Shown here piece after piece: positions 5,119-24,289 of a stretch of DNA of 64,000 bases. Numbering within the stretch: the stretch's first letter is position 1; each line of letters opens with the position of its first letter. This stretch comes from Trueperaceae bacterium (GTDB taxonomy: Bacteria; Deinococcota; Deinococci; Deinococcales; Trueperaceae). The stretch spans positions 1,472,001 to 1,536,000 of the forward strand of contig OZ243927.1 in NCBI GenBank assembly GCA_965213925.1. Direction: 5' to 3'. The notes beneath the pieces were generated by a model that searched no databases, was not told where the DNA came from, and saw only the letters and a list, made by a program, of their open reading frames with translations. A program made the position numbers and the translations under genes.

Positions 5119-5712
5119 TCACGCTTGGCTGCGCTCATCCAGCACAGGTTCGTTGCCCGGCTTCCACTTGACCGTACAGCCGAGCGCGTACGTTTCCGGC
5201 TCCTTGACGGCGTCGCCCTTTAGAAGCGCGTTTAAAGCGTCCTTTAACTCGTGCGTGCTCGCCTTCTCGGGCTCCTTGAGGTTGTCGTCGATTCTGCCGT
5301 GATAGGCGAGCGTGCGCTCCTCACCAAAAACCAGGATTTCTGGCGTGCGAAAGGTGCGGTACGCCTGCGCGACCTCTTGCGTCTCGTCGAAGAGGTAAGG
5401 GAAGGGGAGCGCGTGCGTCTCGGCGAACGTTTGCATCCCTTCAAAGCTGTCGTCGGGGTAGCGCGCGGCGTCGTTCGAGTTGACCATGACGAACTGAACG
5501 CCCTTATCTTCGTAAGCTTGCGCCAAGCGTTTGAGCCTGTCCAGCGCGGCGAGGACGTAAGGGCAGTGGTTACAACCCTGAACGTAGACGAAGAGGCTCG
5601 AGTCGATGTCCTCGAGGCGGTAAATCTTCTCATCCACGCCGGGCAGCGCGAAGTCGGGCGCATGTGCGCCGATGGGGAGCGGGTCGGGGTGCGTTTTTAT
5701 GCGGGCTTTCAT
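5119..5712 (-). CDS. thioredoxin-like (AhpC/TSA, redoxin) protein
   Basis: APDFALP, CNHCPYV, YHGRIDD and GCTVKW motifs; GAGGAGG RBS before ATG 5712. Confidence 0.9.
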   Translation of the reverse strand: MKARIKTHPDPLPIGAHAPDFALPGVDEKIYRLEDIDSSLFVYVQGCNHCPYVLAALDRLKRLAQAYEDKGVQFVMVNSNDAARYPDDSFEGMQTFAETHALPFPYLFDETQEVAQAYRTFRTPEILVFGEERTLAYHGRIDDNLKEPEKASTHELKDALNALLKGDAVKEPETYALGCTVKWKPGNEPVLDERSQA

Positions 5713-5761
5713 CAAAGTCCTCCTCAAATCAAAGCTGCTTTCGACGTTCTTTCGGTTATAC

Positions 5762-5839
5762 TAGCAGGTATCATCTGGTTTGAGACGCCCTCACTATAGA
5801 AAACACTGCGTAGCACGCACGCTATGAGATGATAGCTGC
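5762..5839 (-). repeat. repeat family C, compact ~78-bp hairpin copy
   Basis: Ends GCAGGTATCATCT / AGATGATAGCTGC are inverted repeats; its reverse complement aligns ungapped with 49027-49094 (50/68 by hand count). Confidence 0.7.
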
Positions 5840-6008
5840 GGCGTTCTGCCTCAGTATGTTTTGGAAGTGCTATACCGAGCGTGAGGTGAGTTATGTGTAT
5901 CCTTGGGTCACGCCCGAGGAGCTGCCGCGCTAAACTAGAGTGAATGAAAGAGGAGCGAACATCAAGGAAAACAGGGGGAGGGCTCGAGCCTCTAAAAAGA
6001 GTATTGGG

Positions 6009-6200
6009 TACACCGTTAATTAAGTTTTGTTGCACGGACCTCTTACTTGTCACCCCGAGCGCAGTCGAGGGGTCTCGTCCCGCAATCTCCGATAGCAAAG
6101 AAGGCAAATGCAGAGATTCTTTCATCGTTCATCCGACGCTGCGCGGTTCGTTGGACCGAAAGGGGGCTCCGCTGCGCTTCGTTCAGAATGACATAGCTCA
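6009..6200 (-). mobile_element. MITE family A, reverse-oriented copy missing one terminus
   Basis: Begins TACACCGTTAATTAA and carries the reverse complements of the TGTCATTCTGAACG, GAAAGAATCTCTGC and GAGACCC...GGGTGACA core blocks. Confidence 0.75.
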
Positions 6201-6248
6201 CGCTTTACCCGACGCTTTGCCCACCCAATCCACCAAGGACGCACCCCA

Positions 6249-7967
6249 GTGAGCTTTCTCGCGCCGCAATTTTTATGGCTCTTGCTCGCGTTGCCCGTGG
6301 TGGTGGCGCTGCATTTTGTGCGCAGCAGGCGCAAGCGTTTGGACGTGTCCGCGCTCTTTTTGTGGCGGCAAGCCGCGCAACTCGCCGAGCGCCGCCGCCG
6401 CTTTTCGCCGACCTGGTTGCTCGCGCTGCAGCTTCTCTTCGTGAGCTTGGCGGCGCTCGCCCTGGCGCAACCCAGTTTCAACGTGGGGGGCGCACCGGAG
6501 CGCGTGCTGATCGTCGACGCTTCGGCGAGCATGGCGGCGCGGGATGGCGGGTCGACTCGCCTCGAGCGGGCAAAAGCGGAAGCGGCGGACCTCTTAGCAG
6601 GTGCGGGGCGCGTCGCGGTCCTCCGCGCCGGGCTAGACGCGACCGTCGCGCAACCCCTCAGCTCAGACAGAGGAGCCGTCCGCCGCACCTTGCAGGACCT
6701 CACGGCGGCGGACGCGAGCGCCGACTTGCAGCGCGCCCTCGACCTCGCCGCTTCGGTCGCGCCGGGCGCGGAGCTTCACCTCTTTAGCGATGACCTAGCG
6801 GGTGTGGTCGAGCCGCCCGGAAGCGCGCTCACCTTTCACCCGGCGGTACAACTTGACCAAACTGACGTGCCCCTTCAAAGCCCAGCCAATTGGGGTGTCA
6901 GCGCGTTCGATTTGCGCAACCAGCAAATCTTCGTTTCGGTGGTGAGCAACGCGCGCCGTCCGCAAGAGGTCACGCTCAGCGTGACCAGAGACGGTACCGG
7001 GGAGGATAGACCCGTCGCGCAGACCTCGCTCCTCGTGCCGAGCCAGGGGCAGGCGAACACCTCGTTTCCGGTCGAAGACATGACAGGGTTCTACCGCGCC
7101 GTGATCGAGGTGCCAAGCGAAGATGCCCTCGACCTCGACAACGAAGCCTTCGCGGGCAGCCGCACGCTGGGCGTGGTCGTGACGCCGCCGACGCCGCGCA
7201 TAGAGCGCGTGCTGCGCATCTTGCCGGGTGTGGAGGTGCGCAGCGTGCGGTCGCTCCCGGAGGGTGAAGGGGCTCTCGAGTACGACGTTCTCATCTCTTC
7301 GAACCCGCCACCGGAGACCTTAGCGCCCGGTCGTTACCTCTTCTTCAGAGCGCCCAGCGAGGAGCCGCGCTACGCGCAGATCGCCGACTGGGACCGGAGC
7401 GACCCGCTGCTGCGCTTCGTCGACCTGACGGGCGTGACGGTGGGCTTGCCGCCGGAGGACGCCGAAGCCGCCCCGCTGCCCGCAGGGGACTGGCGCACGT
7501 TGGCGCAGACGAGCGACCTCTCGCCCGCCCTCTTGCGCCTGAGCGAGCCGGGCGTCGAAGCCGCCTTGCTCCGCTTTCACCCCTCTCAGACCGACCTGGT
7601 GCGCCGCGTCGCCTTTCCTATCCTCATGACGAACCTAATGGACGCCTTTCGCGGTGAGCCCCGCTTGCCCTTGGGCGCGCCGCTCAGTGTAGACGGGGGG
7701 AACGCCGGCGAACGCGCGACCGAGCCGGGCGTCTATACCGTCGGCGGCGCGCCCTACAGCGTGAGCTTGTTAAGCGCGGCGGAGTCACGCCTAGAGACCT
7801 CGCTCCCTACGGCTCTTAGCACGCAGAGCGGCGCGGCAAACCCGCCTGAAGAGGCGACGGAGCGCCGCAACTTAGGGCTCTGGCTCACGCTCACCGCGCT
7901 CCTCGTGCTGGTGGGCGAGTGGCTGCTCTGGTCGCGCGGAGGCGGAGGCGGGTGGGCGAGGGCCTAA
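6249..7967 (+). CDS. BatA-like N-terminal double-TM + VWA domain protein
   Basis: N-terminal FLAPQFLWLLLALPVVVALHF...LALAQP; VWA motif DASASM; C-terminal TM ending EWLL. Confidence 0.85.
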   Translation: MSFLAPQFLWLLLALPVVVALHFVRSRRKRLDVSALFLWRQAAQLAERRRRFSPTWLLALQLLFVSLAALALAQPSFNVGGAPERVLIVDASASMAARDGGSTRLERAKAEAADLLAGAGRVAVLRAGLDATVAQPLSSDRGAVRRTLQDLTAADASADLQRALDLAASVAPGAELHLFSDDLAGVVEPPGSALTFHPAVQLDQTDVPLQSPANWGVSAFDLRNQQIFVSVVSNARRPQEVTLSVTRDGTGEDRPVAQTSLLVPSQGQANTSFPVEDMTGFYRAVIEVPSEDALDLDNEAFAGSRTLGVVVTPPTPRIERVLRILPGVEVRSVRSLPEGEGALEYDVLISSNPPPETLAPGRYLFFRAPSEEPRYAQIADWDRSDPLLRFVDLTGVTVGLPPEDAEAAPLPAGDWRTLAQTSDLSPALLRLSEPGVEAALLRFHPSQTDLVRRVAFPILMTNLMDAFRGEPRLPLGAPLSVDGGNAGERATEPGVYTVGGAPYSVSLLSAAESRLETSLPTALSTQSGAANPPEEATERRNLGLWLTLTALLVLVGEWLLWSRGGGGGWARA

Positions 7968-8617
7968 TCCGCCCCCGCATCCGTATCTTCTGCGCTCGTA
8001 TCTGAATCTGTTGTACCTGTTTCGCTGAGCGCCCCTACGACGCTAAAACGCACCGTCACCTCGTCAGCCACCGTCGTTCCTAAAAAGCTCGGGCGGTCCA
8101 TGTCGTAGTCGCTCAGGAGCACGCCGAAGTTGCCGCTAGCGCGGAGCACGCGGTTGCCACCCGTGTTTGTCAACGAAACTTCCGCTGGCACTGTAACCTC
8201 GCGTGTAACGCCGTGCATGTCGAGCGTCCCTACCAAATTGACCGTCTCGGTCTCGCCTACCGCCAAGCTCGCCGTTTCTGCCTGCACGCCCTCAGCGGTG
8301 AGCGTAATCACCGGGTACTCGCCCGTCTCGAAGACGCCGCGGCGCGCGTTGGCGTCGCGGATGAGGTTGCCCGAGTCGAACTTTCCGGGGTCGAGCGTCG
8401 CTTCTAAACTCAGCTCATTTAGGGTGTCGCTGTCGAAGGTCAGCTCGAGCGTCTCTAAGGGCGCACGTCCCTGCCAGGTGCTGCGCGAGTCGGAGGCTTC
8501 GTACTCGATGAAGCTCTCCTGCTGCAGCGCGGCGCGGTAGGTCGTCGCCGTGAGCAAGAGGGCCATGAGGAAGAGCGCGCACCCGAGCAGCGCGGTTTTC
8601 AGCGGTTGTTTCGTCAT
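7964..8617 (-). CDS. YceI family protein
   Basis: Signal peptide; SGNLIRD...FETGEYPVI, GTLDMHGVTREV and DYDM motifs. Confidence 0.85.
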   Translation of the reverse strand: MTKQPLKTALLGCALFLMALLLTATTYRAALQQESFIEYEASDSRSTWQGRAPLETLELTFDSDTLNELSLEATLDPGKFDSGNLIRDANARRGVFETGEYPVITLTAEGVQAETASLAVGETETVNLVGTLDMHGVTREVTVPAEVSLTNTGGNRVLRASGNFGVLLSDYDMDRPSFLGTTVADEVTVRFSVVGALSETGTTDSDTSAEDTDAGAD

Positions 8618-8883
8618 AGTTTAGTATGGCGGCTGGGGCGAGCCGAAAAGGTGAGGGGTGTTTCATATCAGCGTGAGCGCGCCGGAAAGGTGCGGAGGGC
8701 TGAAAGGAGCACATTCTAATCTGAATTTTCCTTTTGTACCCAGTCAAGGTCGGGACATGTGCGCTTCACCGCTTTTCTCAGAGAAGACAGGGTATGTTGT
8801 AGAGATGAAGAGGGCATTCCCTCGTGCACGCAAGGCGCTACGATTACTAAAATAAGAGATGTTCAAAATCGGAAGGAGATTAG

Positions 8884-9516
8884 ATGAAGTCTAAAGGAAT
8901 CCTCGTCACCGCGCTTATCGTCATAACCGTTATCTTCACCGCGTTCAACTGGGGGGCGCTGTCCACCTACTTGCCTATTAACTTCCTCTTTTTCCAGGTT
9001 CAGCTTCCTCTGGGGCTCTTCCTCATCGGCGCGTTTCTCCTCGCGTGCCTGCTCTTTTTACTGCTGTCACTCTTTAGGCGCGCGGGTCAGCTTCGCCACG
9101 TGATGCACATCGAGCGTCAACTCGACGAGGTACAAAAAAAGCTGGAGAAGCAGCGCTCCGATGAAATTGTGGGGCTCGAGAACAAGATTCTCGGGCGGCT
9201 CGACGGTTTAGAGACCCGTATGTCCGAAACCGACACCGGCTTTCGCACCGTCGTCAGCGAGCACACCAACCACATCGAGGCGCACGAGCGCGCCCAAGTC
9301 GAGCGCTTAGAAGAGCGCGTCCTCTTGATGCGCAACGAACTCGCCGCCGACATCGCTCAAGTCGAGAGTTCTCTAAGAAAGAGCCTGCCCTCTTCCGGGT
9401 CTGGGTCTGGGTCGTTCAGCGACTCCGCGTCGTCCAGCGGCTCCACATCGTCATCTGGTATGTCCACCAAGCCGGACATCACCGTTGTGGATAAAGAGGT
9501 GAAACGCGCGCCATAA
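8884..9516 (+). CDS. LapA (DUF1049)-domain membrane protein with coiled coil and Ser-rich tail
   Basis: Two TMs with FN...INFLF...LPLG pattern; GGAG RBS. Confidence 0.7.
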   Translation: MKSKGILVTALIVITVIFTAFNWGALSTYLPINFLFFQVQLPLGLFLIGAFLLACLLFLLLSLFRRAGQLRHVMHIERQLDEVQKKLEKQRSDEIVGLENKILGRLDGLETRMSETDTGFRTVVSEHTNHIEAHERAQVERLEERVLLMRNELAADIAQVESSLRKSLPSSGSGSGSFSDSASSSGSTSSSGMSTKPDITVVDKEVKRAP

Positions 9517-9517
9517 A

Positions 9518-9830
9518 GAGCAACGAGTTAAAAGCAATGAGCAATGAGTACACTGTCAACTAAATAATGAGTGATGTCATTCTGAACGCAGCCCTACGGC
9601 GAGCGTAGGATAGACTCCGCGGAGTGAAAGAATCTCTGCCCTTGCTGACTCCTCTGACAGAGAACGAAAGTTACGAAGTTTTGGTATAGCCAAACGAGAC
9701 CCTCACGCCTTCGCCGAAGCTCCGCTCTACTTCGTGAACAGGGTGACAGCAGTAAGAGAGTATCGATACTTAATTAACGGTGTAATGAGTGAAAATCTTT
9801 AGACTCATTGCTCGTTGCTCATTGCTCGTT
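9518..9830. repeat. inverted heptamer-repeat hairpin (GAGCAAY)n...(RTTGCTC)n interrupted by a MITE
   Basis: Left arm GAGCAACGAG...AGCAATGAGCAATGAG; right arm CTCATTGCTCGTTGCTCATTGCTCGTT. Confidence 0.75.
9549..9784 (+). mobile_element. MITE family A (236 bp)
   Basis: TIRs TACACTGTCAACTAA / TTAATTAACGGTGTA; ATGAG duplicated on both flanks (9544-9548, 9785-9789). Confidence 0.85.
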
Positions 9831-9890
9831 ACTTCCCTACTTGTTCTACAAAACAGCGGAACTCACCGCGCTATCTGCTACGCTAAAGCT

Positions 9891-10253
9891 ATGGAACAAG
9901 CTACCCCCACCCCAGCCGAGCAAAACGGAAGTGCGGACCTTCCCACGAAAGAGGCGCTTTTAGAAGCGCTTAAAGTCGTGAAAGACCCTGAAATCCCTGT
10001 GAACGTCGTGGACTTAGGGCTCATCTACAACGTCGACGTGAAAGAGGGCGGTGAAGTCGACGTTGAGATGACGCTAACGAGCATGGGCTGCCCCGTTCAG
10101 GACATGATCCAAGCCGACGCCGAACTCGCCTGCATGAAAGTGGATGGCGTGAAAAAGGTCAACGTCGAGTTCGTGTGGTCGCCGCCCTGGTCGCCCGAGA
10201 AGATGTCGGACGACGGGAAAAAGCAGATGCGGATGTTTGGATTCAACATCTGA
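9891..10253 (+). CDS. metal-sulfur cluster assembly factor (DUF59/SufT-like)
   Basis: DPEIPVNVVDLGLIY, MTLTSMGCP and WSPPWSP motifs; TACGCT-N6-ATG. Confidence 0.9.
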   Translation: MEQATPTPAEQNGSADLPTKEALLEALKVVKDPEIPVNVVDLGLIYNVDVKEGGEVDVEMTLTSMGCPVQDMIQADAELACMKVDGVKKVNVEFVWSPPWSPEKMSDDGKKQMRMFGFNI

Positions 10254-10284
10254 GCTAGATGTCATCTAACAGCTAATGTGCGGC

Positions 10285-10312
10285 GTAGGGGAGGTTCATG
10301 AACCTCCCCTAC
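10285..10312. repeat. GTAG-type REP palindrome (family B)
   Basis: Perfect 28-bp palindrome GTAGGGGAGGTTCATGAACCTCCCCTAC followed by TTTT. Confidence 0.85.
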
Positions 10313-10407
10313 TTTTGTGAAAATTTTGCGGCAGCGGGCTATATAGGTCTTTCATACTTGAGAAGAGGTGCGCCGTTGCGCCTTAGTCTCGAGTTTAGGA
10401 ATCCACC

Positions 10408-10977
10408 ATGATTAGACCTCTTTCATTCGCGTTAGCCGCCCTCCTTTTGCTTGCTTCATGCGCACCGTCGGCAAGTTCGTCGAACTACGCCGAGCAAATT
10501 TCCGAGAACTTCTTTCGCCTGCCCGACACCTTCAGCATGAACGGAATAAGAAAACAGAAGAGAACAGTCGTGCCCGTTAAACCTGGTCAAACGGTTTTGG
10601 TAGAGAGACCTTCGACGACCGAAGACGGCATCATCGCCTTGACCAGTACCAGAAGGAAATCCGCGCCCATCGTTTATGACGAAACTGAGAAGTACGTTAT
10701 CGCCGAACTAATAGCGCCGCAGGGTTGGACAGCGAGTATCAACTCTGTAAAAAAGGTCGTTGAGTTTGATTCATCAGTGCGATTGGATGCGTACCACTGG
10801 GTCGATATGGGCGGAAATTACGAGCTGAAAGGTACGGGTATGATTCGCTCCAGCAATATCATTAGCTTCACCGTTCCGGAGGATACGCAGCCGGGACGCT
10901 ACCGCTTTAGAGCGCAGTATGAAGCCGAGGGGAAGAAATACCCACCTAGTATCGAGTTTATCGCAGAAGTCCTCTGA
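10408..10977 (+). CDS. hypothetical lipoprotein
   Basis: Lipobox LASC; beta-rich, Ig-like C-terminus (FTVPEDTQPGRY); more AT-rich than its neighbours. Confidence 0.7.
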   Translation: MIRPLSFALAALLLLASCAPSASSSNYAEQISENFFRLPDTFSMNGIRKQKRTVVPVKPGQTVLVERPSTTEDGIIALTSTRRKSAPIVYDETEKYVIAELIAPQGWTASINSVKKVVEFDSSVRLDAYHWVDMGGNYELKGTGMIRSSNIISFTVPEDTQPGRYRFRAQYEAEGKKYPPSIEFIAEVL

Positions 10978-10995
10978 ATTTTTAGGGTAGCAGGC

Positions 10996-11024
10996 GTAGG
11001 GACGGGCTTCAAACCCGTCCTTAC
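10996..11024. repeat. GTAG-type REP palindrome (family B)
   Basis: GTAGGGACGGG-CTTCAAA-CCCGTCCTTAC; supplies the addA stop codon. Confidence 0.8.
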
Positions 11025-13754
11025 GCGCTTTCCGAAGCGAGCCCCTCCCTAAACGCCTCCTCGAGTACTTCCAGTTGCAACCTCACAACCCGCTTGTCCC
11101 GCAGATACACGAGTTGCACCTGCGGCGTCACCTTGCGGACCTCGCGGATCGCCTGCAAGTAGACGCCGAGCTGGAAGTGATAGCGCTCCGGCTCGACGAC
11201 TTGATCGGTTTTGTAGTCCTCCAAAATCCAATCGTCACCGACGCGGTAGAGGCGGTCGATGACGCCCTGCCAGACGGTCGCGCCGCGGGGCAGCGCCATC
11301 GGCAGTTCGGGGTGGTCTTCGTCGCGCGCGTTTAGGGCGGGGAGTTCGTTTCTCAAGAGGTCTTCGTAGTTGCTAAGTAACCCTCCGACCTCGAGCAAGA
11401 TATCTTGCTGCTCGTTCTCGCTAAAGGGAAACATCACCTCTTGCGCCCCTCAAATTGTGAAGGTGTACTGGATTGTCCGCGCGCCAATTCTGCGAGATGG
11501 CGTAGTGAACCAAGGTGCCCACCGTGCGCGAGCGACCCGGCAAGCGCTCGCCCTCGTCGGGGTCGGCGATGGGCAGCGGTTCGAAAGGGGCTCCTTTGAG
11601 GCTCGAGGGCGACGACACGGGCGGATGCGGATGCGGCGGGAAGGTGCGCGCGACCCAGGGGGAAGGCTCGAGGCTAGGGCGCACCTTATGATTGGAAGAG
11701 GTCGCGGTGACAGGCGCATACGCCCACGTTTTGAGGACGAAGTCGGGGCGCGCCCAAGACGCCGCGCCCGCGCCTAGACCCATCGCGTCCAACCCTTTCG
11801 CCCAACCGTCGGGCTTAGTCCCCTTCACGCTGCCGCTCATCAGCAGCACGTCTTTAGCGCGAGACGCCGCCACGTAGAGCAGGCGGTAGCTCTCCTCTTC
11901 CTCTCGAGCTTGCGCCGCCTCCTTCATCGCCCCGAACTGCGGCGTGTCTTTCAGGGCGAGGTGCCCGGTTTTGGGCTCTACATACAGCGGTTGCGGGTGG
12001 TGATAGGTCTTGCGCCCTAAGTCGAAGACGGCGACCGCGTCCCACTCGAGCCCCTTCGCCCGGTGGACGGTGAGCAGCGAGATCCCCTCGCCGCTCTGCG
12101 GCACGTCGCCCGCTTCGGCTTGGCGGCTCAGGAGGTCGAGGCGCTCTAGCAACACTTCGATTTCCCCCGGCGGCTGCTCCGCGACGGTAAAAAGGAGCGC
12201 GTCCACGTTTTCTCTCGCCCGCGCCTCCAGAAAGTCCATGTAGCGCTTGCCGCCGACGAAGGGCTCCCGAATCAGAAATTTAAGCGCCGCGAGCGGGGTC
12301 GCGCGGACCTGTTCGCGGATTCGCGCCAAGCGTCCGAACAGCTCGGGGTAGTCAGACCCCAAGCGGGCGACGGGGTCTTCCGCCGAGAGGACCCGGTCGA
12401 GTTCGTCAAGCTCGAGCGCGGCAAAGGGGCTCCGCAGCCACGCGCCTAAGCTCAGACCGGACGGGTCGATGCCGACGCGCAGCGCGTGGTAGAGGTCGCG
12501 CACTTCGATGCGTTCGTAGTAGCCGCGCCCTTGCAGCAAGACGTAGGGGAGACCCGTCGCGTCCAGCGCGGCTTCCATGTAGGCGAGCCCGCTGTAAGAC
12601 CTAGCCAAGACCGCCATCTGACCCGGCGCGTAGTGTTCGCATAGCGCCGCCAGCCGTTCCGCCAAGACCTTCGCTTCATAGCGGCGCAGGTCGCCCACCG
12701 GCTGCTCGCCCGTGACCCAGTGAAGCTCGACGCGCCCGCGTTTCTCGGCTTGCGCGCCGGCGGCGTAGACTTCGGGGGCTTCGTTTTGGCTAAAGCCTAA
12801 GTTGTGCGCCGCAAAGGTGCGCGTCATGCCGTTCAGAAAGCGCGTCAAGACGGCGGCGTGGCGGCGCGTTTTGTCCAGTGGCGCTAAGACGTCGCCCGTG
12901 CGGAGCGCGCGGCGGAAGACCTCCACGTCGGCGTTCCGAAAGCCGTAGATGGACTGCTTGGGGTCGCCCACGACTTCGACGCGGATGTCGGCGGACTCGA
13001 GCCGCCTAAAAAACTCCCCCTGCAGCGGGTTCACGTCCTGAAACTCGTCCACGAGCACCACGCGGTAGCGCGCCGCGAGACGCGCCAGCGCGTCCTCCGT
13101 CTGCGCCATCACGAGCGCGCGCCGCTCGACCTCGGCGGGCGGCAAGAGCCGCGCCCCCAAGCGCACGCGGTAGCGGTCATACACCGCGTCAAAGAGCTTG
13201 AGGAGCGCCGTATTTGTGGTGTTCGGCGCGTCCTCGCGGTTTCTGAAACGTTCCGTCAGGGAGCGCTGTCCGAAGAGGTGCATGACGAGCGGCGCGGCGT
13301 TCTCGCCGAGGGCGCTCACAGCTGGGTAGAGACCGTGCTTGGGGTCGTTCGCCACGTAGAGGAGTGAGGTCAACTCCTCCTCGAACATGACCGACGCCTC
13401 CCACTCACCGAGCGAGCGCACGTCCGGGTCTAAACCCAACTGCGGCGCGACCAAGCGCAGCGCCTCGCGCATGAAGCCGTGGATGGTGGTGAGCGTCGCG
13501 CCGCTCAGCTCGCGTTCGGCCTCCTCGAAGGAGGCCCTCGCGTCCGGCGGCGGGCAGAGGTCGAGGTAGCGCCCGGTCTCCAGGACGACCCCCAACCCCG
13601 ACGCGACGCGCTGGCGCAACTCGTTCGCCGCCGTGCGCGTGAAGGTGACGCCCGCGACGCGGCGGAGCGGCGTTCCTCCAGACAGAAGCTCCAAGTAGCG
13701 CCGCACCAAGCTCGTCGTCTTACCCGTGCCAGCGGAGGCGACGCGGACCCTCAC
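11021..13754 (-). pseudogene. addA: AddA-like UvrD helicase-PD-(D/E)XK nuclease, frameshifted at ~11446-11449 (true lesion or sequencing error)
   Basis: ASAGTGKT, DEFQD, GDPKQSIYGFR, TVHRAKGLE and YVAASRA in the 777-aa ORF; the nuclease motif GVIDRL...EDYKT...QLGVY lies in the next frame. Removing one G joins them as NLRAQEVMFPF. Confidence 0.8.
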
Positions 13755-13768
13755 GCTAGCCCGTCACC

Positions 13769-16090
13769 TTAGCGCTGCCCCACGCGGCACAGGTCGAAGA
13801 CGCGGCACTCGCGGCATACGAAGCCGGGGCGGGGCGTCACGTCGCCCCCCTCAAAGCGGACGAACGCGCGCGACGCCTTCTGCTGCCGCGACGCGATCTG
13901 CCGCCACACGTAGCTGATGGGGGCGCCGAACACGTCGACGGGCTCGCCCAACACGGGCAGGAGGTAGAGCCGCACGCCGGAGATGCGCGGACCATACGTG
14001 TCTATAAGGTGCCCCGCCGCCCACAGCTCGTTCCAGCGGTGCGGTTTGCGGACCCACGCCTCGGCGTCCGCTTGGGTCCAGGGCCCCGGTTGCACGAAGG
14101 TGTAGAGCCGCATCTCCTGCCCGGAGCGACCCGCCGCGTCGAGCAGGGCGAAGGGACCGCTCGAGCCTTCGGGCAGCGCCACGCCGTAGGTCAGCGGCAG
14201 GAGGGTTTCCTCTATAGTTGCCAGCCACGCCGCCGCCTCCGGGTAGCGCGCCTGGAGCGCCCCGAGTCTCGCGACGTTAAGCTTGCGCACCTCGCGCAAA
14301 TCGCGCACGAGCGCGCGCCACCAGGGGAGGTCCTCTTGCGCTACGCGCCGCTCCGCCCAGTAGCGAAAGCCGCACGCGGCGTAGCGCGCTAAGGCTTGGA
14401 CGCGCGGCGAGCCGAGCCTGACAGCCTTGAACGACGGGTCGAAGGGGGAGGCTTGGTGCAGCTCGAGCCGACTCCCCGCCGCTACCGCCGGCAGAGGCGC
14501 GCAAGCCGCCCCGACGAGCGCGGGCTCCGGCACGAGCGGTCCGCCCTGGTCGGCTTCGGGATACGTCACAACGACCTCGTCGCCCCGCGTGAGCAGTTCG
14601 GCGAAGAGGAGCGCATCGCGCCCTAAAAAGCGTTTGGGGAGCCCCGCCCCTCGCTCCGGGCTGAAGATCGCCTCGAGCGACCCCCGTTTCTCCTCCGGCG
14701 TAAAGTAGTCCTCCGCCTCGCCGACCGTGTACGCGCCCTCGACCGCGTGCGCGACGTAGACCCGCCTAAAGCGCCGCCCCGAGGCGAGCTTGGCGGTAAG
14801 CAGCGCGACGCCCCCTTTCGGTCGCGAGAAGAGAAAGGTCTCTTGCAAGAGCGCCCCCCACCAGGCGCGGAACTGGGCACCTTTAGCGAGTTGCGCGGCC
14901 TCTTTGGCGCGCTCTAAGGCGTGGTCCTTGAAACTGCCCCAATCGAAGCGCGCCGCGTTCACCCCGAATTCAGGCAAGCTCTCCACCAAATCTTGCGCCC
15001 ACGCAAGCTCGCCGTCCGGCACGTCTAAGCGCCCCAGCCACGCGCGCCACCGCTCGCTCTCGCCGACCTCTTGCGCTAGGAGCGTCAGCGCCTCGCGCCC
15101 CGCCACGCCCCGCGTGAGGGCGGCTTTGGCTAGGGGCGCAAGTTCGGGGATGGCTAATAGCCTCGAGGCGGTCGGGTAGTCGGGCAGCTCCAAGAGGTCC
15201 AAAAGAAGGCGTCCTTGCGGCGTCTCGGCGAGCGCCTTGGGCGTCTCGTCCATCGTCGGCACGCCGTACTCGTCCGCTAGGGACAAAAACGCCCGCACCT
15301 CTCGCTCGGGCAAGATGACCGCTAAGTCCAGGGCGTCGTAGCCGTTCGCCAGGTCGCGCTTGAGGGCGCGCAGGAGCCAGCGCGACTCGGCGACGGGGTT
15401 CGGCGCGCGGTGGGTCTGGACATTGCATGTGCTCGCACGTTCGACCCTTTCGCTCGCCTCTTCACCGGGCGGCGCGTCGGGCAGGCTCAGCCACACGTCT
15501 GTTGTCTGAGCGAGGGCTTTGTAAAGTTCAAGCTCCAAAGGTCCGAGTTCCCTAAAGCCGTCGACCACGATGAGGTCGGCTTCGGGCTCCGCGTCGCCGG
15601 AGAGGGCTAAATGGAGAGCCTCGAGCCGAAAGTCGTCGTAGTCCCACGTCTCACCTTTTAGCGCCTCGTAAAGACGTAACACGGCGCGAAAACGCGCGGT
15701 CTCCTCGTCGTGCACCTCGACCTCTCGCCAGGTCAATCCGAAACGCTTCGCCTCGGCAACCGCCCGCGTGAAGAGCCGCGCCTCGCCCGGCGAGGGCAGT
15801 TCGTTACGCAACTTTTTAAGCGCTTCGCCGACCAGCGCGATGCGCCCCGTGCCGACGACGAGCGGCTTGAGCTTGAGCGCGTGCGCGAGCAGGCGGTAAT
15901 AAACCTGCTGCGAGGAGAGGAATTCCAGACCCAAGACCGCGCCCTCTTCAGCCAGTCGCCGATAAACGTAAGCGCGCTGACTCGGCAAGCCGACCCACCA
16001 CACGCGCTCGCCCCGGTGCGCCGCCCTTCTCGCGACGCCTAACAGCTTCGTCGTTTTGCCCGCGCCTGGCGGACCGGTGAGGAGGTTCAC
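13769..16090 (-). CDS. addB: AddB-like helicase/nuclease partner with Fe-S cysteines
   Basis: GPPGAGKT Walker A; YAACGFRY and terminal CRECRVFDLC; directly upstream of addA; TATAGT-N7-GTG. Confidence 0.75.
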   Translation of the reverse strand: MNLLTGPPGAGKTTKLLGVARRAAHRGERVWWVGLPSQRAYVYRRLAEEGAVLGLEFLSSQQVYYRLLAHALKLKPLVVGTGRIALVGEALKKLRNELPSPGEARLFTRAVAEAKRFGLTWREVEVHDEETARFRAVLRLYEALKGETWDYDDFRLEALHLALSGDAEPEADLIVVDGFRELGPLELELYKALAQTTDVWLSLPDAPPGEEASERVERASTCNVQTHRAPNPVAESRWLLRALKRDLANGYDALDLAVILPEREVRAFLSLADEYGVPTMDETPKALAETPQGRLLLDLLELPDYPTASRLLAIPELAPLAKAALTRGVAGREALTLLAQEVGESERWRAWLGRLDVPDGELAWAQDLVESLPEFGVNAARFDWGSFKDHALERAKEAAQLAKGAQFRAWWGALLQETFLFSRPKGGVALLTAKLASGRRFRRVYVAHAVEGAYTVGEAEDYFTPEEKRGSLEAIFSPERGAGLPKRFLGRDALLFAELLTRGDEVVVTYPEADQGGPLVPEPALVGAACAPLPAVAAGSRLELHQASPFDPSFKAVRLGSPRVQALARYAACGFRYWAERRVAQEDLPWWRALVRDLREVRKLNVARLGALQARYPEAAAWLATIEETLLPLTYGVALPEGSSGPFALLDAAGRSGQEMRLYTFVQPGPWTQADAEAWVRKPHRWNELWAAGHLIDTYGPRISGVRLYLLPVLGEPVDVFGAPISYVWRQIASRQQKASRAFVRFEGGDVTPRPGFVCRECRVFDLCRVGQR

Positions 16091-16182
16091 GCTCCACACT
16101 ATACCTAGCATGTGGGCGTTCGAGGGAGATTTCGTAGCGTAAAAGGCGTTTTAGCGTCGTTCCTTTTTGAACTTAGCGGTAG

Positions 16183-17877: not shown

Positions 17878-18115
17878 TTGGCTTTATATTATGACGTTGT
17901 GGCGTGGAGCAGCGTATGTGCTCATCTGCAAGGCAAGTCACGGCGTGAGCGTGTGGCGTGGCACTAAGCCTTTGACCGCCACGCTTTTACTCGACCTTTT
18001 GCGCTCCGTGCTCACCGTTCTAACCTAGCGTCTTCATTCATATGGGCGCGGTGTCAAGATGCAATGAAGAATTTCACAGTTGTGCGTTATGCTTGACTTT
18101 ATGAGGGGCACCCCT

Positions 18116-21100
18116 ATGACGACATTCAGCAGAAGCTTAGCCTTTTTACTGGGCTTCGGCATCACCTTTCTACCCTTTTACGGACCCTTCCTCGGACTGT
18201 TACTCTTCTTCTCGACGCGCTGGTCGTTGCGGCGTTTCGACGTGCTCTGGTGGGGCGCGGCGTTCCTCTTTGCGCTGCCCTCGGCGGTGCGCGGCGACGC
18301 GGCGGGGTTTTTCTTCGGCGCAGTGCAGCTTCTCGCGCCTTGGCTCGTCTACCGCGCCTTCGGGCAGCTCGCGGCGGACCAGCCTCGCATCGGCAAGTCG
18401 CGGCTTTCAGCGCCTATCGGGGTAGGGCTCCTGTCGGGGCTCGCGCTGGTCGTTCTGTTCGGCTGGCTGCAGCTCGGCGCGTTGGGGGCGGGGCTCCTGG
18501 GCACCGTCACCCAGACGTTCGTGGGGGCGGCGGGCTCGAGCGTATACGGTCACACCGTCTTCGCGCTGGGCGCGCTCGTGGCGATTCTCCTGCCCAACAT
18601 GCGCCTCAAGCTGGTCAGCTTGGGGCTCTCGGCGCTCGGCATCCTCGTTTCGGGCAGCCGTGAGGCGGCGCTCGCTTGGCTGCTCGTCGCGCTCACGCTG
18701 CTGCTTATGGGGGGCAAGCGCTCCTGGCGCAGCCGCGCCGCCGAAATCAGTTTGGTCAGCCTCATGCTCCTGGTGGCGGCGGGCATCGGACCGCAGCTCG
18801 GCTGGGGGCGGGTCGGGCTGCTCGTCGACTTAGCGCCCGCGACGAACCCTTCGGTCAACCTCTTGCAGGGCTCGGAAAGCCCCGAGGGTGCCTGGTGGGA
18901 CACGCTCGGCGTTCGCGTACAAGCGGAGCGCGTCACACTCGCCGGGCAGGAGCGCACCAGCTACCACCTCACCAAAGAGACGCCGGAGAGTTGGGGGCGG
19001 CTGCAACAGGTCGTGCCGCTCCTCCCGAACACGCCCTACACGGTGAGCGCCTGGGTGAGAGCGCCAGCGGGCGCGGCGCAGGGCCTACCCGGCATCCAGG
19101 GGCGCGGGCAAGCGGCGGCGGGCGCGACCTTTACGCTGCGCGGCTTCCTGAGCGGCGACACGTGGAAAGCCGACGTCGACGGCGCAGGACGGGTGCTCAG
19201 CGCGGGCATCGCCGCCGAGGAGCGCGGAGAGGAAGGGGCGTGGCGGCGCGTCTGGGTGAGCTTCGTCTATGAAGGAAACGAGCCTCGTCTGCTGTGGTGG
19301 CTGGGGCTCACGCCAGACCAGCGCACGACAGCGGGGAGTCAGGCGAGTTTCGCGGGCTTTCAACTCGAGCGCGGGGATACCCTCACGCCCTATACGCCCG
19401 GCCCCGTCACACAAGGGTTTAGCCTGCGCAACGCCCGCGTCTCCTACTGGCAGTCCGCTTGGCAGGGGTTCGCGGCTCGCCCCGTTTGGGGCTGGGGTCG
19501 GGAGGCGTTCGGCGAGGCGTACCGCTCGAGCTGGCCCGCCCAGCGCCGCCTCCACGAAGTGCCCGAGCACGCGCACAACGTGTTTTTGAATACGCTCTTC
19601 GAGCGTGGTCTCGTCGGGTTCGCCGGGCTCGCCTTTCTGCTATACGCCCTCACAGTGAGGGCGTACCGGGCGAGGGACGCTGCCTTTTTGGTCGTCTTCG
19701 CCGCGCTGCTCGTCGCGAACACCTTCGACACGACGCTTCTTTACGGCGGCGTCCTCTACCCCTTAGCCGCCGTCGCAGGGTGGCGCGCGGCGTCGCGGCA
19801 CGTGCCCGCGCAGCAAGAGGCTACCGCCAAGCAGGTCGGGGTGCGCTTGGCGCTTTCAGTCACCGACTTTTTCACGGCGCTCGCCGCCTTTAACCTCGCG
19901 GCGCTCTGCTTGTGGTGGGCGGGGCGAATGTTCCACTTCGACGCGGGCTCCATCGTCTCGCCGACGGGCGCGATCGGCTACGCGCTGCTGCTATGGCCCC
20001 TCATGGCGTGGCGCGAAGGGCTCTACCCCGGCTACGGTCTGACCGCGCCGCAAGAGCTGCGCAAGCAGGTCTCGAGCGCCGCCTACGCCGGGCTCATCCT
20101 CACGGCGGGCAGCGCCCTCTTCAGCGAAGAGTTGCCCATTCCAGGCACGGTGCTCGTCCTGACGATCCTCTTCAGCGCGGTCTTGTCGCCTTTAGGTCGC
20201 ACCGTCGCCAAGTACGTGCTTCACCACTTTGGCCTCTGGGGGCGCGAGGTGGTGATTCTAGGCGCGGGCAACGCGGGGCGGCGCGTAGCACGGGCACTGC
20301 AGCAGCGTCCTCTGGATGGGCTTCACCCGGTGGCGCTCTTCGACGACGACCCAGCGAAGCGTGACGCGGAGGTCGAAGGCTTGCGCGTCAGGGGTACGCT
20401 CCGCGACGCACAGGCGTTCGCCAAAGCCAGGGGCGTGCGTCATGCAGTCGTCGCCATCTCGCACGCCTCGGACGACACCCTGATGCAGCTTCTCAACACG
20501 CAAGGTCGCGCTTTCAAGCAGGTCCAGTTCGTCCCCCACATCGAAGGCTTGCCCGTTTACGGCGTGCGCGCGGGCTCGCTCGACAACCTCTTGGCGTTGG
20601 AGGTCGACAACGCGCTCAACTCGACCCTCAACCAGAGCGTCAAGCGCGCGCTGGACCTCATCGGCGTCGTGGTGGGCGGCGTCATAATCAGCCCCTTTTT
20701 GCTCCTCCTGATGGTCGCCATCTACCTCGACTCACCCGGACGGGTCTTTTTCGGGCATCGGCGCGTCGGGCAGGGGGGCGAGCACTTCACCACCTGGAAG
20801 TTCCGCACGATGGTCCCGAACGCGCAAGAGGTCCTCGAGGAGCATCTGGCGCGCGACCCCGTCTTAGCGCAGGAGTGGCAGACGAGCTTTAAGCTGCAAG
20901 ACGACCCGAGGATCACGCGAGTCGGTAAGTTTTTGCGCAGGACGAGCCTGGACGAACTGCCGCAGCTCTGGAACGTCCTTATCGGCGAGATGAGCTTAGT
21001 CGGACCGCGTCCCATCATCGACGAGGAGGTGCCGCGCTACGCGACCTCTTTCGAACTCTACAAGCTGGTGCGCCCCGGCATGACGGGCTACTGGCAGGTC

Positions 21101-21238
21101 TCGGGGCGCAGCGACACGGACTACCCGCACCGCGTAGCGCTCGACAGCTTCTACATCCGCAACTGGTCGGTGTGGCTCGACGTGGTGATCTTGCTAGCGA
21201 CGGCGCGCGTCGTGCTCGAGGGCGACGGCGCGTACTAG
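18116..21238 (+). CDS. fusion: O-antigen ligase/O-OTase-like (Wzy_C) domain with inserted carbohydrate-binding-like domain + WbaP-type undecaprenyl-phosphate glycosylphosphotransferase
   Basis: SGSR in the TM region; RVSYWQSAWQGFAARPVWGWG...HAHNVFLNTLFERGLVG (ligase); YTVSAWVRA...WRRVWVSF...FQLERG (CBM-like); VILGAGNAG, KFRTM and DPRITRVGKFLRRTSLDELPQL...MSLVGPRP (WbaP-type PGT); one uninterrupted frame. Confidence 0.85.
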   Translation: MTTFSRSLAFLLGFGITFLPFYGPFLGLLLFFSTRWSLRRFDVLWWGAAFLFALPSAVRGDAAGFFFGAVQLLAPWLVYRAFGQLAADQPRIGKSRLSAPIGVGLLSGLALVVLFGWLQLGALGAGLLGTVTQTFVGAAGSSVYGHTVFALGALVAILLPNMRLKLVSLGLSALGILVSGSREAALAWLLVALTLLLMGGKRSWRSRAAEISLVSLMLLVAAGIGPQLGWGRVGLLVDLAPATNPSVNLLQGSESPEGAWWDTLGVRVQAERVTLAGQERTSYHLTKETPESWGRLQQVVPLLPNTPYTVSAWVRAPAGAAQGLPGIQGRGQAAAGATFTLRGFLSGDTWKADVDGAGRVLSAGIAAEERGEEGAWRRVWVSFVYEGNEPRLLWWLGLTPDQRTTAGSQASFAGFQLERGDTLTPYTPGPVTQGFSLRNARVSYWQSAWQGFAARPVWGWGREAFGEAYRSSWPAQRRLHEVPEHAHNVFLNTLFERGLVGFAGLAFLLYALTVRAYRARDAAFLVVFAALLVANTFDTTLLYGGVLYPLAAVAGWRAASRHVPAQQEATAKQVGVRLALSVTDFFTALAAFNLAALCLWWAGRMFHFDAGSIVSPTGAIGYALLLWPLMAWREGLYPGYGLTAPQELRKQVSSAAYAGLILTAGSALFSEELPIPGTVLVLTILFSAVLSPLGRTVAKYVLHHFGLWGREVVILGAGNAGRRVARALQQRPLDGLHPVALFDDDPAKRDAEVEGLRVRGTLRDAQAFAKARGVRHAVVAISHASDDTLMQLLNTQGRAFKQVQFVPHIEGLPVYGVRAGSLDNLLALEVDNALNSTLNQSVKRALDLIGVVVGGVIISPFLLLLMVAIYLDSPGRVFFGHRRVGQGGEHFTTWKFRTMVPNAQEVLEEHLARDPVLAQEWQTSFKLQDDPRITRVGKFLRRTSLDELPQLWNVLIGEMSLVGPRPIIDEEVPRYATSFELYKLVRPGMTGYWQVSGRSDTDYPHRVALDSFYIRNWSVWLDVVILLATARVVLEGDGAY

Positions 21239-21250
21239 CTAAAGAAGACC

Positions 21251-24200
21251 TCACGGCGACGTGTTCAACACCCTCACCCTGCGGGTCAGCTCGGTGACGG
21301 TGCCGTCCACTGTGGCGGCGCGGAAGACGAGGTCGTAGACGGCGTCCTCGGCGTCGGCGGCGACGGGGAGAACCGCGCTGTAACGCCCCGGCTCCTCTTC
21401 GGTGAGTTGAACATTACCTAGCAGGCTTTGCATGCTCACCTCGGCGGCTTCGAAAAGGGGCTCGGCGAAGAGGTCTAAAGACTCGCCCGCCCTGACCGGA
21501 CCGTCGGCAGTGACTTCGAGCCGGGCAACGTCCGGGTCGACGACGAGCTGACCTCGGCGGCTCGCCGTCTCGTCGCCGCGCCGCGCGACCACTTCGAAGG
21601 TGTAGACGCCGGGCGGCGTGTCCGCGGGCACATTCACGCGCCCGAACCACCCGCCCTCCACCGCGAAGAGGTCGCCCTTACCCGCCGGGGTGCTGACGCT
21701 CACGCTCTCGGCGTCACCTTGAACGCTCACCCTGATGAGCGGCGCTGAACCGGGCGGCGCGCGCTCGGCTGTCGGCGTCACGCGGCGCACGCGCAACTTC
21801 GACCCGCCGAAACTCCGCGCTCGCGTGCGCGCGGGTTGGAGCAGGTACGTGACCTCGACGACCTCGCCCGCGCTTACCGTGAGCTGGCGCGCCGCGTCAC
21901 CTAAAAGGACGCTGCCAGCGGGGTAGTCGACGAGCTGCAAGGTCGCCTCGCCGGGGAGCAGCCCGCGCGCCGAAAAGTTGCCCTGCTCATCCGCGCTGAG
22001 CGAGCGGTAGAGCCCTTCGGTGTCGATGAGCAGCAGCCGCGCCGCGAGACCGCGTGCGGGCGTGTCGGCGACACCGTCGGCGTCCGCGTCCTCTAAGACC
22101 CGCCCCCTGAGCGCCGCTGTACGCGCGAGGCGAAAGTCCCACGTGACCTCCTCTTTGAGCGCGACTTCGGCGAAGACCGTATCCGACCCTAGCAAGCGGT
22201 AGGTGATGGGCAGACTCGTAACCTCGAGACTCACCTTGTAGGTGCCGGGCTCCACGTCGGCGCGGTAACGCCCCGCCTCGTCGGTCAGGATTCTGAAACG
22301 CCCTACCCTGACCTCGACGCCCGCGAGCGGACCCTCGTCGGAACGCACCACGCCCTGCACCGCGCCGAGCCGACGCCCGCCCGCAAACTCGCTCGCCCTG
22401 CGCGGAACGCCCACGTCAAAAGCGTAGTCGCTCGAGAGCGACAGCCCTAAGGTGAAAGGACGTTCGCCTGCGCCGCTGCCGTACCCATAGTTGGCGTTGC
22501 CCGCGACGTTGACGCGCCAGGGTCCGCTGTAGAGCACCGTGCCCGCGTTGAGCCCTAACCGCTTCTCCTCGACGTTCCAGGTGCCGTTGCTAAAAAAGGT
22601 GAGGGGCGCGTCGTTCATCTGCAACTTGAGGTCGAGCTGACCCTCCAGATGCCGCGTGCTCGGATAGTAGGTCAGGTCGCTCTCCAAACTGTAGTAGGGC
22701 GTGCCGCGCCGCGCCAAACGCGCGGACGTGTCCAGCGCCAGCTCAGCGCCGTAGACCACGCCGAACTGCGCGTCGGCGAGCCACGCATCGGCAAAAGGCG
22801 TCTCGTACTGGAGCCGCGCAACGTTCTGTGCGCTGCCCATCTCCAAGCTCAGCGTGACGTCGCCGGGTAGCGAGGGCAGATCGTCGAAGATGAGGCGGTC
22901 TTGCAGGCCGATGCTCCAGCCAGCAGCGGGTTTTGAGTCAGAGGAGTTTTTTGAGCCGGAGGAGGTTCTCGAGGAGGTCGCCCCGAGAGAGCCCTTCGCG
23001 TAGAGGTGCCGTCCGGGTCCGTAATAGTCTAACTGGGTTGACGCGCTCGCCCCGTCGGTGAGCAGACCGGTCAGTTTGAGGCTTCCTCGCAGCCTTCCCG
23101 TCGAGAGCTTTCTTTCTCCCTCCAACGAGGCGTCGAGGGCGTCATCGCTCGCTTTGGCTGCAACGCTAAACGCGCCTAAGTCGGCGCTACCACGTGCGCT
23201 GAACTGCGCGTCGCCTGAACGTATCCCCGCCCCGAGTGCGACGGACGCCACTTGAGCATGGTACGCGCCCGCTACGTAACCGGGCGCATCCTTCTCCGCG
23301 CTGAGCGCACCCGCTACCGACCAGCGCGGCGCTTCGTAGCTCCCCGATACGCCGGTGCCCGACGACAGTCCGAGGTTGTAAGGGTCGCCGCCGCTGCCCC
23401 CGACCTGCGCCGTCCACACCTCATGCTGCATCTCCGCGTAAGAACTCAGCATGTCCTTGGCGTCCAGTCTCGCTGTCAAGCTTACAAAGTCAGAGAGCGG
23501 ACCCTCCGCCGTGAGTTCGCCCCCCCAGCTCTCAGTCGAGAGGCTCGCCGAGGCGACGGCATTGAGGCGAAAAGGGTGCGGCGGCGGCACGCCGAAGCGG
23601 GTGACCGTGAGGGTTTTGCGGACGACCTGCTCGCCGCTCGTTAAGACGAGGGTGTAGCTTCCCTCGCTCGAGACCTCGAGCCGCTCCACGCGCCGCTCCT
23701 GCGGCGCAAGCTCGCGCTCGCGCGCCACCAAAACCTCGCCCCGCTGACGCAGCTCGAGGCGCACCGCGCTCGTCACGTTGCCCCGGTTGATGAGGGTGAC
23801 GTTCACTCCTTTGGCGCTCAACACGACCGTTTCGGGCGCGTCTAGGTCCAGCGACGTACGCTCGTTGACCGTGACGGTTGTCTGAACGCTCAGCTCGTCC
23901 GTAGCGGTGCGCAGCGTCAACGTGAGCGTGTCCTCGGCGAACGCAGGCGCGTCGGCAGGCACAGCCAGCGTGAGCGCGATAGGGCGGCTCTGCCCCGGCG
24001 CTAAGGTCAGCTCGCCCGGCTGCCGTAAGATTTTCCAACCCGACGAGGAGCGCGCCTCGGCGCTTACAACCGTGCCGGCTTCCGTCCCGGACGCCTCCGC
24101 GCGAAACACGAAGGTGACGTAGTCGCCGGGCTCGGCGAAGCGGCTGTTCGGCGGCGTCAGGGTCAAGGTTTGCGCGACGCCTGTGCCGACCAAGGCTAGT

Positions 24201-24289
24201 AGCGCCAAGCAGAGAAGGCGCGCGAGAACCGTTAGACGCACCGCCACGCGCTGAAAGGACATGTCGAGAAGGTGAGCGAACTTCGTCAT
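21251..24289 (-). CDS. large secreted/outer-membrane protein (Ig-like domains, beta-strand-rich core, carboxypeptidase-regulatory/SdrD-B-like repeats)
   Basis: Signal-peptide-like N-terminus (GTGVAQ); N-x-GN Ig-like motif; alternating aromatic beta strands; TDEAGRY and LEDADADG motifs. Confidence 0.75.
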   Translation of the reverse strand: MTKFAHLLDMSFQRVAVRLTVLARLLCLALLALVGTGVAQTLTLTPPNSRFAEPGDYVTFVFRAEASGTEAGTVVSAEARSSSGWKILRQPGELTLAPGQSRPIALTLAVPADAPAFAEDTLTLTLRTATDELSVQTTVTVNERTSLDLDAPETVVLSAKGVNVTLINRGNVTSAVRLELRQRGEVLVARERELAPQERRVERLEVSSEGSYTLVLTSGEQVVRKTLTVTRFGVPPPHPFRLNAVASASLSTESWGGELTAEGPLSDFVSLTARLDAKDMLSSYAEMQHEVWTAQVGGSGGDPYNLGLSSGTGVSGSYEAPRWSVAGALSAEKDAPGYVAGAYHAQVASVALGAGIRSGDAQFSARGSADLGAFSVAAKASDDALDASLEGERKLSTGRLRGSLKLTGLLTDGASASTQLDYYGPGRHLYAKGSLGATSSRTSSGSKNSSDSKPAAGWSIGLQDRLIFDDLPSLPGDVTLSLEMGSAQNVARLQYETPFADAWLADAQFGVVYGAELALDTSARLARRGTPYYSLESDLTYYPSTRHLEGQLDLKLQMNDAPLTFFSNGTWNVEEKRLGLNAGTVLYSGPWRVNVAGNANYGYGSGAGERPFTLGLSLSSDYAFDVGVPRRASEFAGGRRLGAVQGVVRSDEGPLAGVEVRVGRFRILTDEAGRYRADVEPGTYKVSLEVTSLPITYRLLGSDTVFAEVALKEEVTWDFRLARTAALRGRVLEDADADGVADTPARGLAARLLLIDTEGLYRSLSADEQGNFSARGLLPGEATLQLVDYPAGSVLLGDAARQLTVSAGEVVEVTYLLQPARTRARSFGGSKLRVRRVTPTAERAPPGSAPLIRVSVQGDAESVSVSTPAGKGDLFAVEGGWFGRVNVPADTPPGVYTFEVVARRGDETASRRGQLVVDPDVARLEVTADGPVRAGESLDLFAEPLFEAAEVSMQSLLGNVQLTEEEPGRYSAVLPVAADAEDAVYDLVFRAATVDGTVTELTRRVRVLNTSP

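Follow-up and report, generated by a model that had tools for sequence, protein, structure and literature searches.

A WaaL-like ligase joined to a WbaP-type phosphoglycosyl transferase in one Trueperaceae protein: architecture, conservation and possible roles

Initiating transferases and ligases of surface glycan assembly are normally separate proteins on opposite membrane faces. Does a single polypeptide of a Trueperaceae bacterium combine the two, and what would such a protein do? We analyzed a stretch of 64,000 nucleotides (the window; GenBank assembly GCA_965213925.1, contig OZ243927.1, positions 1,472,001 to 1,536,000 of the forward strand) in which one gene at 18116 to 21238 (+) encodes 1,040 aa. 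Its reading frame, Pfam and NCBIfam matches, homologues and structural model identify a ligase-like domain of the WaaL fold with a jelly-roll insert, followed by a full-length large monotopic phosphoglycosyl transferase (PGT) of the WbaP type. This fusion combines known parts and is conserved in Trueperaceae, and judging by sequence both halves look catalytically intact. We propose, at a probability of roughly 0.45, that its C-terminal half primes the lipid carrier, that enzymes of a gene cluster assemble the chain, move it across the membrane and lengthen it, and that its N-terminal half ligates the chain to a glycolipid anchor while the jelly roll holds it.

The two halves of the protein

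The frame runs from an ATG at 18116 to a TAG at 21238. An earlier note on this DNA had described one chain with a Wzy_C-type domain, an insert and a full WbaP; the Pfam and NCBIfam matches in a single frame agree with it. An interruption near 19790-19840, which would have counted against the note, was not found, and the region 19790-19850 contained no stops or frameshifts. A strain contig spanning the junction (19528-20962) differed by 52 substitutions and no gaps, with 34 of the 36 listed substitutions classified as synonymous, although it is not independent evidence because it was probably derived from the source sample. In three genomes of the window's genus, the ratio of nonsynonymous to synonymous substitution rates was 0.07 to 0.18 across all six gene regions, which indicates purifying selection.

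The C-terminal half matched the WbaP family TIGR03022 over aa 581-1040 (460 bits; cutoff, 403) and the Salmonella WbaP structure 8T53 with a profile E value of 1.5e-120. Pfam placed CoA_binding_3 at aa 682-796 and Bac_transf at aa 843-1034. The domains follow the order of the large monotopic PGTs (WbaP subfamily): a four-helix membrane bundle (aa 579-705; 19850-20230 [+]; NCBIfam, profile and model), a Rossmann-like PF13727 domain with a beta-hairpin region (aa 706-830; 20231-20605 [+]; Pfam, profile and model) and the PF02397 catalytic core (aa 831-1040; 20606-21235 [+]; Pfam, alignment and profile). The core carries DELPQ at 946, and K895, R897, D946-E947, R965 and R998 were invariant in 121 of 121 alignment rows. 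With all domains in order and the Asp-Glu pair universal, the transferase is as complete as had been claimed. Salmonella WbaP is a homodimer, and its PF13727 region takes part in the dimer (PMC10942596); by analogy, the fusion may form a dimer with two ligase domains.

In the N-terminal half, alignment, models and fold search delimited predicted membrane helices 1 to 9 (aa 1-228; 18116-18799 [+]), with an invariant H146 and an SGSRE motif. The remainder of the ligase-like domain, supported by Pfam, alignment and fold search, comprises an outer catalytic loop and predicted helices 10 to 12 (aa 433-560; 19412-19795 [+]), where Pfam reported Wzy_C at aa 437-505 in two stretches (E = 6.8e-14). The Wzy_C motif and the HAHN sequence (aa 485-488) noted earlier are both present, although the motif reads R441-x3-W445...P456-x2-GWG rather than the R..W first given. 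The profile of the half matched WaaL (7TPG; E = 2e-6) such that WaaL R191, R265 and H313 fell on R182, R441 and H487, the last within H485-x-H487. Arg182 (18659-18661 [+]), which the profile alignment pairs with the diphosphate-binding Arg191 of Cupriavidus metallidurans WaaL, was Arg in 111 of 121 fusions; the stretch that carries this pairing scores below threshold when taken alone. The triad was entire in 107 of the 121 rows, including the window's own protein. H487 was His in 117 rows, and R441, D538 and H146 were invariant in the same alignment (A1; 121 rows).

Structure comparison pointed the same way: among 48,161 chains, the top match to the model of the N-terminal half was WaaL (7TPJ; Z = 23.0, 336 residues aligned, root mean square deviation of 5.1). 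Foldseek ranked WaaL 18th (E = 5.7e-3), and a single-sequence PDB search with this half gave no match. The full-length model had a mean predicted local distance difference test score of 86 and a predicted template modeling score (pTM) of 0.76 over 1,040 aa. In it, nine helices precede the large loop and three follow, with basic residues on alternate loops. This arrangement predicts that the ligase site and the insert lie outside the membrane, whereas the linker (aa 561-578; 19796-19849 [+]) and the transferase lie inside. The alignment showed no split point in this short, predicted cytoplasmic linker in any of the loci examined.

The insert occupies aa 243-428 (18842-19399 [+]) in the large outer loop and is missing in some relatives. 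The earlier note had seen in it a sandwich of about 185 aa resembling a carbohydrate-binding module (CBM), and the structure search of the model confirmed a jelly-roll fold. NCBIfam assigned aa 245-428 to a head-spike-fiber domain (NF048003; 43.4 bits against a cutoff of 36), and the best fold matches were a phage tail-fiber domain (Z = 16.9), CBM16 and CBM22 modules (Z of about 12) and CBM4-like folds. No Pfam CBM family matched the insert, PF02018 was given for just 1 of the 120 homologues listed below (P0085), and Atlas matches were all below 0.9. Conserved aromatic residues are W260, W261, Y308, W376 and Y426. The note had the insert select an acceptor; as modeled, the fold would suit a donor-polysaccharide-binding role no less well.

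Homologues and origin of the fusion

We confined a homologue search to lengths of 572 to 1,820 aa. All of the best 120 homologues listed were fusions of 907 to 1,108 aa with both PF04932 and PF02397 (43 to 91% identity), and some of their sources were named Trueperaceae or Deinococcota. Homologues that are always split would have counted against the earlier note; these 120 are not split. The linker, measured from W556 to D584, had 22 to 31 residues in 121 of 121 rows. This constancy, together with the 120 fused homologues listed, rules out an assembly artifact or chance read-through.

A survey of the phylum covered 301 genomes, 102 of them from the window's family (f1); genome tallies take in genome G251, alignments leave it out, and no conclusion depends on this genome alone. 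The N-terminal half was matched in 78 of the 102 f1 genomes, strongly in 74, and in other families there were weak matches at the Wzy_C end alone. Its best genome matches lay within open frames of at least 980 aa in 57 of 69 cases; several of the 12 shorter frames were near contig ends by their coordinates, and two had an internal stop. The junction is unbroken in G171 and P0278, whose breaks sit either within the WbaP half or close to the start. Separately, G217 carries a broken partial duplicate (aa 20-676, with an internal stop; L037:11404-13401 [-]) directly upstream of its intact fusion gene.

Other architectures were also found. Fusions of about 830 to 880 aa without the jelly roll occur at L047:8486-10972 and L048:8690-11176 and as P0143, P0145, P0167, P0180 and P0202. 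When 1.84 billion representatives were searched with the profile, dozens of stand-alone proteins of 520 to 610 aa matched the whole N-terminal half, ligase and insert. Those that could be placed were from Trueperaceae or Deinococcota, and some of their genes share clusters with the fusion. A related-locus search with the N-terminal half as the query gave no match. Two further proteins, P0280 (957 aa) and P0282 (966 aa), carry two Wzy_C stretches per chain, a tandem ligase/polymerase arrangement.

In a FastTree phylogeny of hand-chosen rows (27 fusions, 30 stand-alone proteins and 28 members of the sister lineage k0/c2, with variable Wzy-like rows left out), the 27 fusions formed one clade within the stand-alone forms (support values of 1.0 and 0.99). 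A single fusion event is therefore likely, with the split form as the likely ancestor, so that the existence of split homologues does not refute the fusion. An earlier motif-anchored tree that divided the fusions in two was discarded as probably misanchored. The sister lineage matched the profile across the catalytic end (E = 7.6e-28), and scores of the jelly roll against it were weak (best E = 6e-4).

Genomic context and a proposed pathway

No flippase or glycosyltransferase was matched among the 36 window proteins scanned. The earlier note's remark on this absence thus stands for the window, and the setting proved unusual for the family: at most of 20 relatives' loci, the fusion borders a glycosyltransferase/Wzx/Wzy cluster. 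GT1/GT4-type genes occurred in 14 of these loci, manC in 12 and uppS in 11, and the clusters also hold Wzx flippases, sugar dehydratases, sulfotransferases, NeuB-family genes and Wzz-like genes. The orphan setting, beside a helicase/nuclease-like pair, was seen in all three genomes of the window's genus and is typical of this genus only. Two closed genomes, G189 and G237, had no Bac_transf match other than the fusion, alongside two to three PF00953 genes; hence, the fusion likely primes a multigene pathway. The compact, self-contained system suggested earlier is at odds with both the clusters and this sole-PGT status. In the window's own genome, Bac_transf genes number four and Wzy_C genes eight, and several Wzx/glycosyltransferase clusters located far from the fusion showed no priming gene in the stretches inspected (labels from BLAST to annotated neighbors). 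Partners thus appear to be available in trans.

We then considered what could serve as the acceptor. The lipid A gene lpxC was matched in 132 of the 301 Deinococcota genomes, namely, 91/102 in f1, 29/62 in f3, 2/14 in f4, 10/10 in f5 and 0/112 in f2, and Thermus and Deinococcus controls were negative. Outside f1, every genome that matched the ligase lineage was lpxC positive: 24 of 29 positive versus 0 of 33 negative genomes in f3, 2 of 2 versus 0 of 12 in f4 and 6 of 10 in f5, whereas none of the 112 f2 genomes matched either the lineage or lpxC. The stand-alone k0 ligase of f3 to f5 borders Wzx/Wzy polysaccharide clusters. Of 16 such k0/c2 loci, 5 have the ligase gene directly after a large PGT gene and 7 have it directly before a Wzz-like gene. 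Genome G237 has the operon lpxD-lpxC-gnnA-like-fabZ-lpxA-(lpxB-like)-(msbA-like) (G237:C1, about 5,300-12,200; L123:4331-11158). This operon and the spread of lpxC, seen alongside five tested genomes that gave no Kdo (3-deoxy-D-manno-octulosonic acid) transferase match, suggest that part of the phylum has a lipid A variant, so far unstudied. By gene content, most relatives could make a lipid A-type acceptor, which the earlier note had not considered. In five genomes tested, Wza was matched in none and Wzz in four (three above cutoff). Taken with the lpxC distribution, this pattern looks like that of an O-antigen-like pathway. G086 (L122) and G162 (L124) likewise have an early lipid A operon.

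The window's genome (96.9% complete) gave no match to LpxC, LpxB or the Kdo transferase family and no tblastn match to the LpxA, LpxC, LpxD or LpxB proteins of relatives. At the syntenic place, fabZ and both flanking genes remain without the lpx genes (L126:2994-7624; G000:C1, about 4,249,000-4,253,600). The anchor in this genus therefore cannot be lipid A.

The pathway that we favor would run as follows. The C-terminal half would form undecaprenyl diphosphate (Und-PP)-hexose at the inner membrane face, as expected from its full-length homology to WbaP and its intact catalytic residues. Assembly, flipping and lengthening of the chain would fall to glycosyltransferases together with a Wzx flippase, a Wzy that varies between clusters and a Wzz-like protein; their genes are neighbors of the fusion in relatives and lie in distant clusters in the window's genome. 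By fold and residues, the N-terminal half would then act in a WaaL-like manner, R182 and R441 holding the diphosphate and H487 activating the acceptor, and the jelly roll, again by its fold, would keep the polysaccharide beside the ligase site. In most of the family, the lpx operon would probably supply the anchor, a glycolipid of the lipid A type; in the window's genus, a different envelope glycolipid would take its place, or else the activity may be weakening. Being fused would set a 1:1 ratio and a common membrane place for the first and last steps.

The note had gone further and coupled release of the carrier to reinitiation. Und-PP released outside needs a phosphatase and a flippase before it can be used again. 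In the model, the predicted active sites of the two halves face opposite sides of the membrane, so that direct hand-over to the transferase is unlikely and dephosphorylation and flipping would come first. We therefore dropped this part.

Several observations weigh against the pathway outlined above, and the first concern its acceptor. The cooccurrence with lpxC outside f1 is not an independent test because it comes from a few related clades. Within f1, the fusion does not track lpxC, being present in 67 of 91 lpxC-positive and 8 of 12 lpxC-negative genomes in a hand tally. lpxC had no match in any of the three genomes of the window's genus, though the fusion is retained, and the fusion motif is intact in the lpxC-negative genera g24 and g25. 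No Kdo transferase (PF04413) was matched in five of five genomes, so any lipid A core would be noncanonical, and LptF/G genes are present irrespective of lpx status. A second conserved ligase gene, c2, occurs in 13 of the 20 relatives' loci and could itself do the anchoring; it had no match in the window's genus. The idea that c2 tracks lpxC held only partly, as c2 is broken in G201 and intact in lpxC-negative g25.

The same side of the balance holds the matches of the N-terminal half to O-oligosaccharyltransferases (O-OTases): the profile match to 9RMK (E = 4.7e-6) was nearly as good as that to WaaL, and there was a weak match to TfpM (NF058641; E = 6.2e-7, 28.8 bits against a cutoff of 600). 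These suit an alternative in which this half is a TfpM/PglL-like enzyme that puts the same glycan on Ser/Thr residues in exported proteins, pilins among them, with c2 doing the glycolipid anchoring. Such a division of labor would account for the paired ligase-type genes and for the fusion kept in lpxC-negative genera. The O-linked glycans of Thermus pilins are tetrasaccharides that include a derivative of pseudaminic acid (PMC7203116), and the clusters of G189 and G141 contain NeuB-family genes; the window's genome also has four pilin-like N termini by motif. Nevertheless, no PglL-specific Pfam domains were found in the fusion protein, no pilin was recognized in the subset of annotated neighbors scanned, and neither f2 nor the lpxC-negative genomes of f3 gave a match to the ligase lineage. 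In addition, the window's genome has other His-type Wzy_C proteins, of 677 and 500 aa, each adjoining a small exported protein with a Thr-Gly-Gly or similar motif at its start. We consider protein glycosylation by the fusion unlikely, if still a serious contender. The 677- and 500-aa proteins (L054:1267-3297 [-] and L053:1267-2766 [-]) are themselves candidate general protein O-glycosylation enzymes.

The loss of catalytic residues in some fusions also counts against ligation. None of the seven insert-less fusions examined has Arg at column 182 (P0143 has one a single column before it), several lack R441 as well, and the domain is kept. The HxH motif is altered in four of the five proteins closest to the window's protein (HAYN in P0002, P0004 and L003; NAHN in P0005) versus 3 of the 116 other A1 rows. 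One way to accommodate such variants is a control role, in which Trueperaceae make a lipopolysaccharide (LPS)-like surface molecule and the outer jelly roll and ligase domains of a WbaP dimer sense whether polysaccharide is finished or waiting and switch the inner priming on or off, rationing undecaprenyl phosphate, which is scarce. Lineages without lipid A, insert or catalytic residues would then have kept the module for control. We regard this elaborate scheme as quite unlikely. In a plainer form, the N-terminal half would be mainly a scaffold or sensor that modulates the WbaP half in response to Und-PP-glycan or finished polysaccharide bound outside, its own catalysis being dispensable. The pTM of 0.76 suggests that the halves pack against each other in a defined way, but the intact triad in most rows and in the window's protein and the invariance of R441, D538 and H146 make it improbable.

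A Wzy-type polymerase whose jelly roll grips the growing chain seems just as improbable. Pfam Wzy_C proteins can be polymerases, as in Myxococcus xanthus (10.1101/2020.06.08.139634), the insert has a polysaccharide-binding fold, and G237 has just two Wzy_C matches, c2 and the fusion. Ligases carry His at this catalytic site, however, and polymerases of the clan carry Asp/Glu (Meitil et al.; PMC10920833), and the fusions have the His of ligases almost throughout. The domain also stays constant while adjacent glycosyltransferases vary, the reverse of polymerase behavior, and a separate variable Wzy-like gene is usual in the clusters. Least credible is the earlier note's stand-alone system moving a single sugar from Und-PP-hexose to an insert-chosen acceptor, which would suit a one-gene unit with no nearby glycan genes in all three genomes of the genus and three other Bac_transf genes free to prime the clusters but is very hard to reconcile with the cluster context of most relatives, the sole-PGT status in G189 and G237 and the need for a flippase regardless.

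The gene itself forms a unit of one gene; it diverges from a zinc dehydrogenase gene and converges on a gene for a 1,012-aa exported protein (21251-24289 [-]) with NEW3, CarboxypepD and SdrD-like Ig domains. From the sequence, its likely ribosome-binding site is GAGGGG at 18103-18108 (+), 8 to 13 nucleotides 5' of the ATG. A promoter scan found no sigma-70 site at the gene, and terminator-like matches there were at chance frequency. The 1,012-aa neighbor was rejected as an acceptor, having no homologue in any relative locus examined. A UvrD-like helicase gene and its partner at 11421-16111 (-), which we take to be an AddAB-like pair, stay next to the fusion gene in each of the genus's three genomes. 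Beyond the window, a separate full-length WbaP-type gene (G000:C1, 1,537,598-1,539,064 [-]) begins 1.6 kb past its end, with a GT1 gene adjacent and a Wzz-like match about 10 kb farther on.

Known systems and significance

The fusion is best compared with its separate counterparts. Salmonella enterica WbaP (8T53) shares the four-helix bundle, PF13727 domain and PGT core (aa 581-1040), to which the fusion adds about 560 N-terminal residues. WaaL of C. metallidurans (7TPG/7TPJ) likewise has 12 predicted membrane helices, the aligned Arg/Arg/His triad, a GT-C fold and a long outer loop near the C terminus; it differs in that identity is 18% and that the fusion carries a 185-aa jelly roll and a PGT in a host without a lipid A pathway match. 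For this last reason, we do not class the fusion as an LPS ligase here, even if it would work in a WaaL-like way. In the CAZy classification, WaaL O-antigen ligases are family GT121, and Wzy polymerases of clan GT-C1 are GT125 to GT129 (PMC10920833). O-OTases (9RMK; TfpM) have the catalytic loop motif in common with the fusion, which scores far under the TfpM cutoff and lacks PglL domains. The insert resembles the jelly rolls of CBM16, CBM22, CBM4 and phage fibers (2ZEW, 1H6X and 9B45) in fold (Z of 12 to 17), with identities of 14 to 19% or less.

Precedents exist for joining a ligase or a PGT to another pathway enzyme, namely, WadA (GT121 plus GT25) and the bifunctional monotopic PGTs (PMC10920833 and PMC11626204). 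The fusion partners of bifunctional PGTs named in passages of two sources are acetyltransferases or soluble glycosyltransferases, and none of those described there joins an initiator to a ligase (PMC11626204 and PMC10942596). A full-text literature search retrieved no paper on an initiator-ligase fusion; the PGT-fusion survey of O'Toole et al. (2021) was outside its reach and may list the architecture. With that proviso, the fusion seems uncharacterized, as had been supposed.

The fusion bears on two open questions, namely, whether initiator and ligase form a complex and how a shared lipid carrier is rationed. Its natural variants, with or without the insert, the catalytic residues and the lipid A genes, form a ready set for probing coupling within one polypeptide, and the protein may supply a new ligase or O-OTase for glycoengineering. 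The model members of the phylum Deinococcota lack LPS. The fusion and its context point to an LPS-like envelope pathway, so far unstudied, in some of its members.

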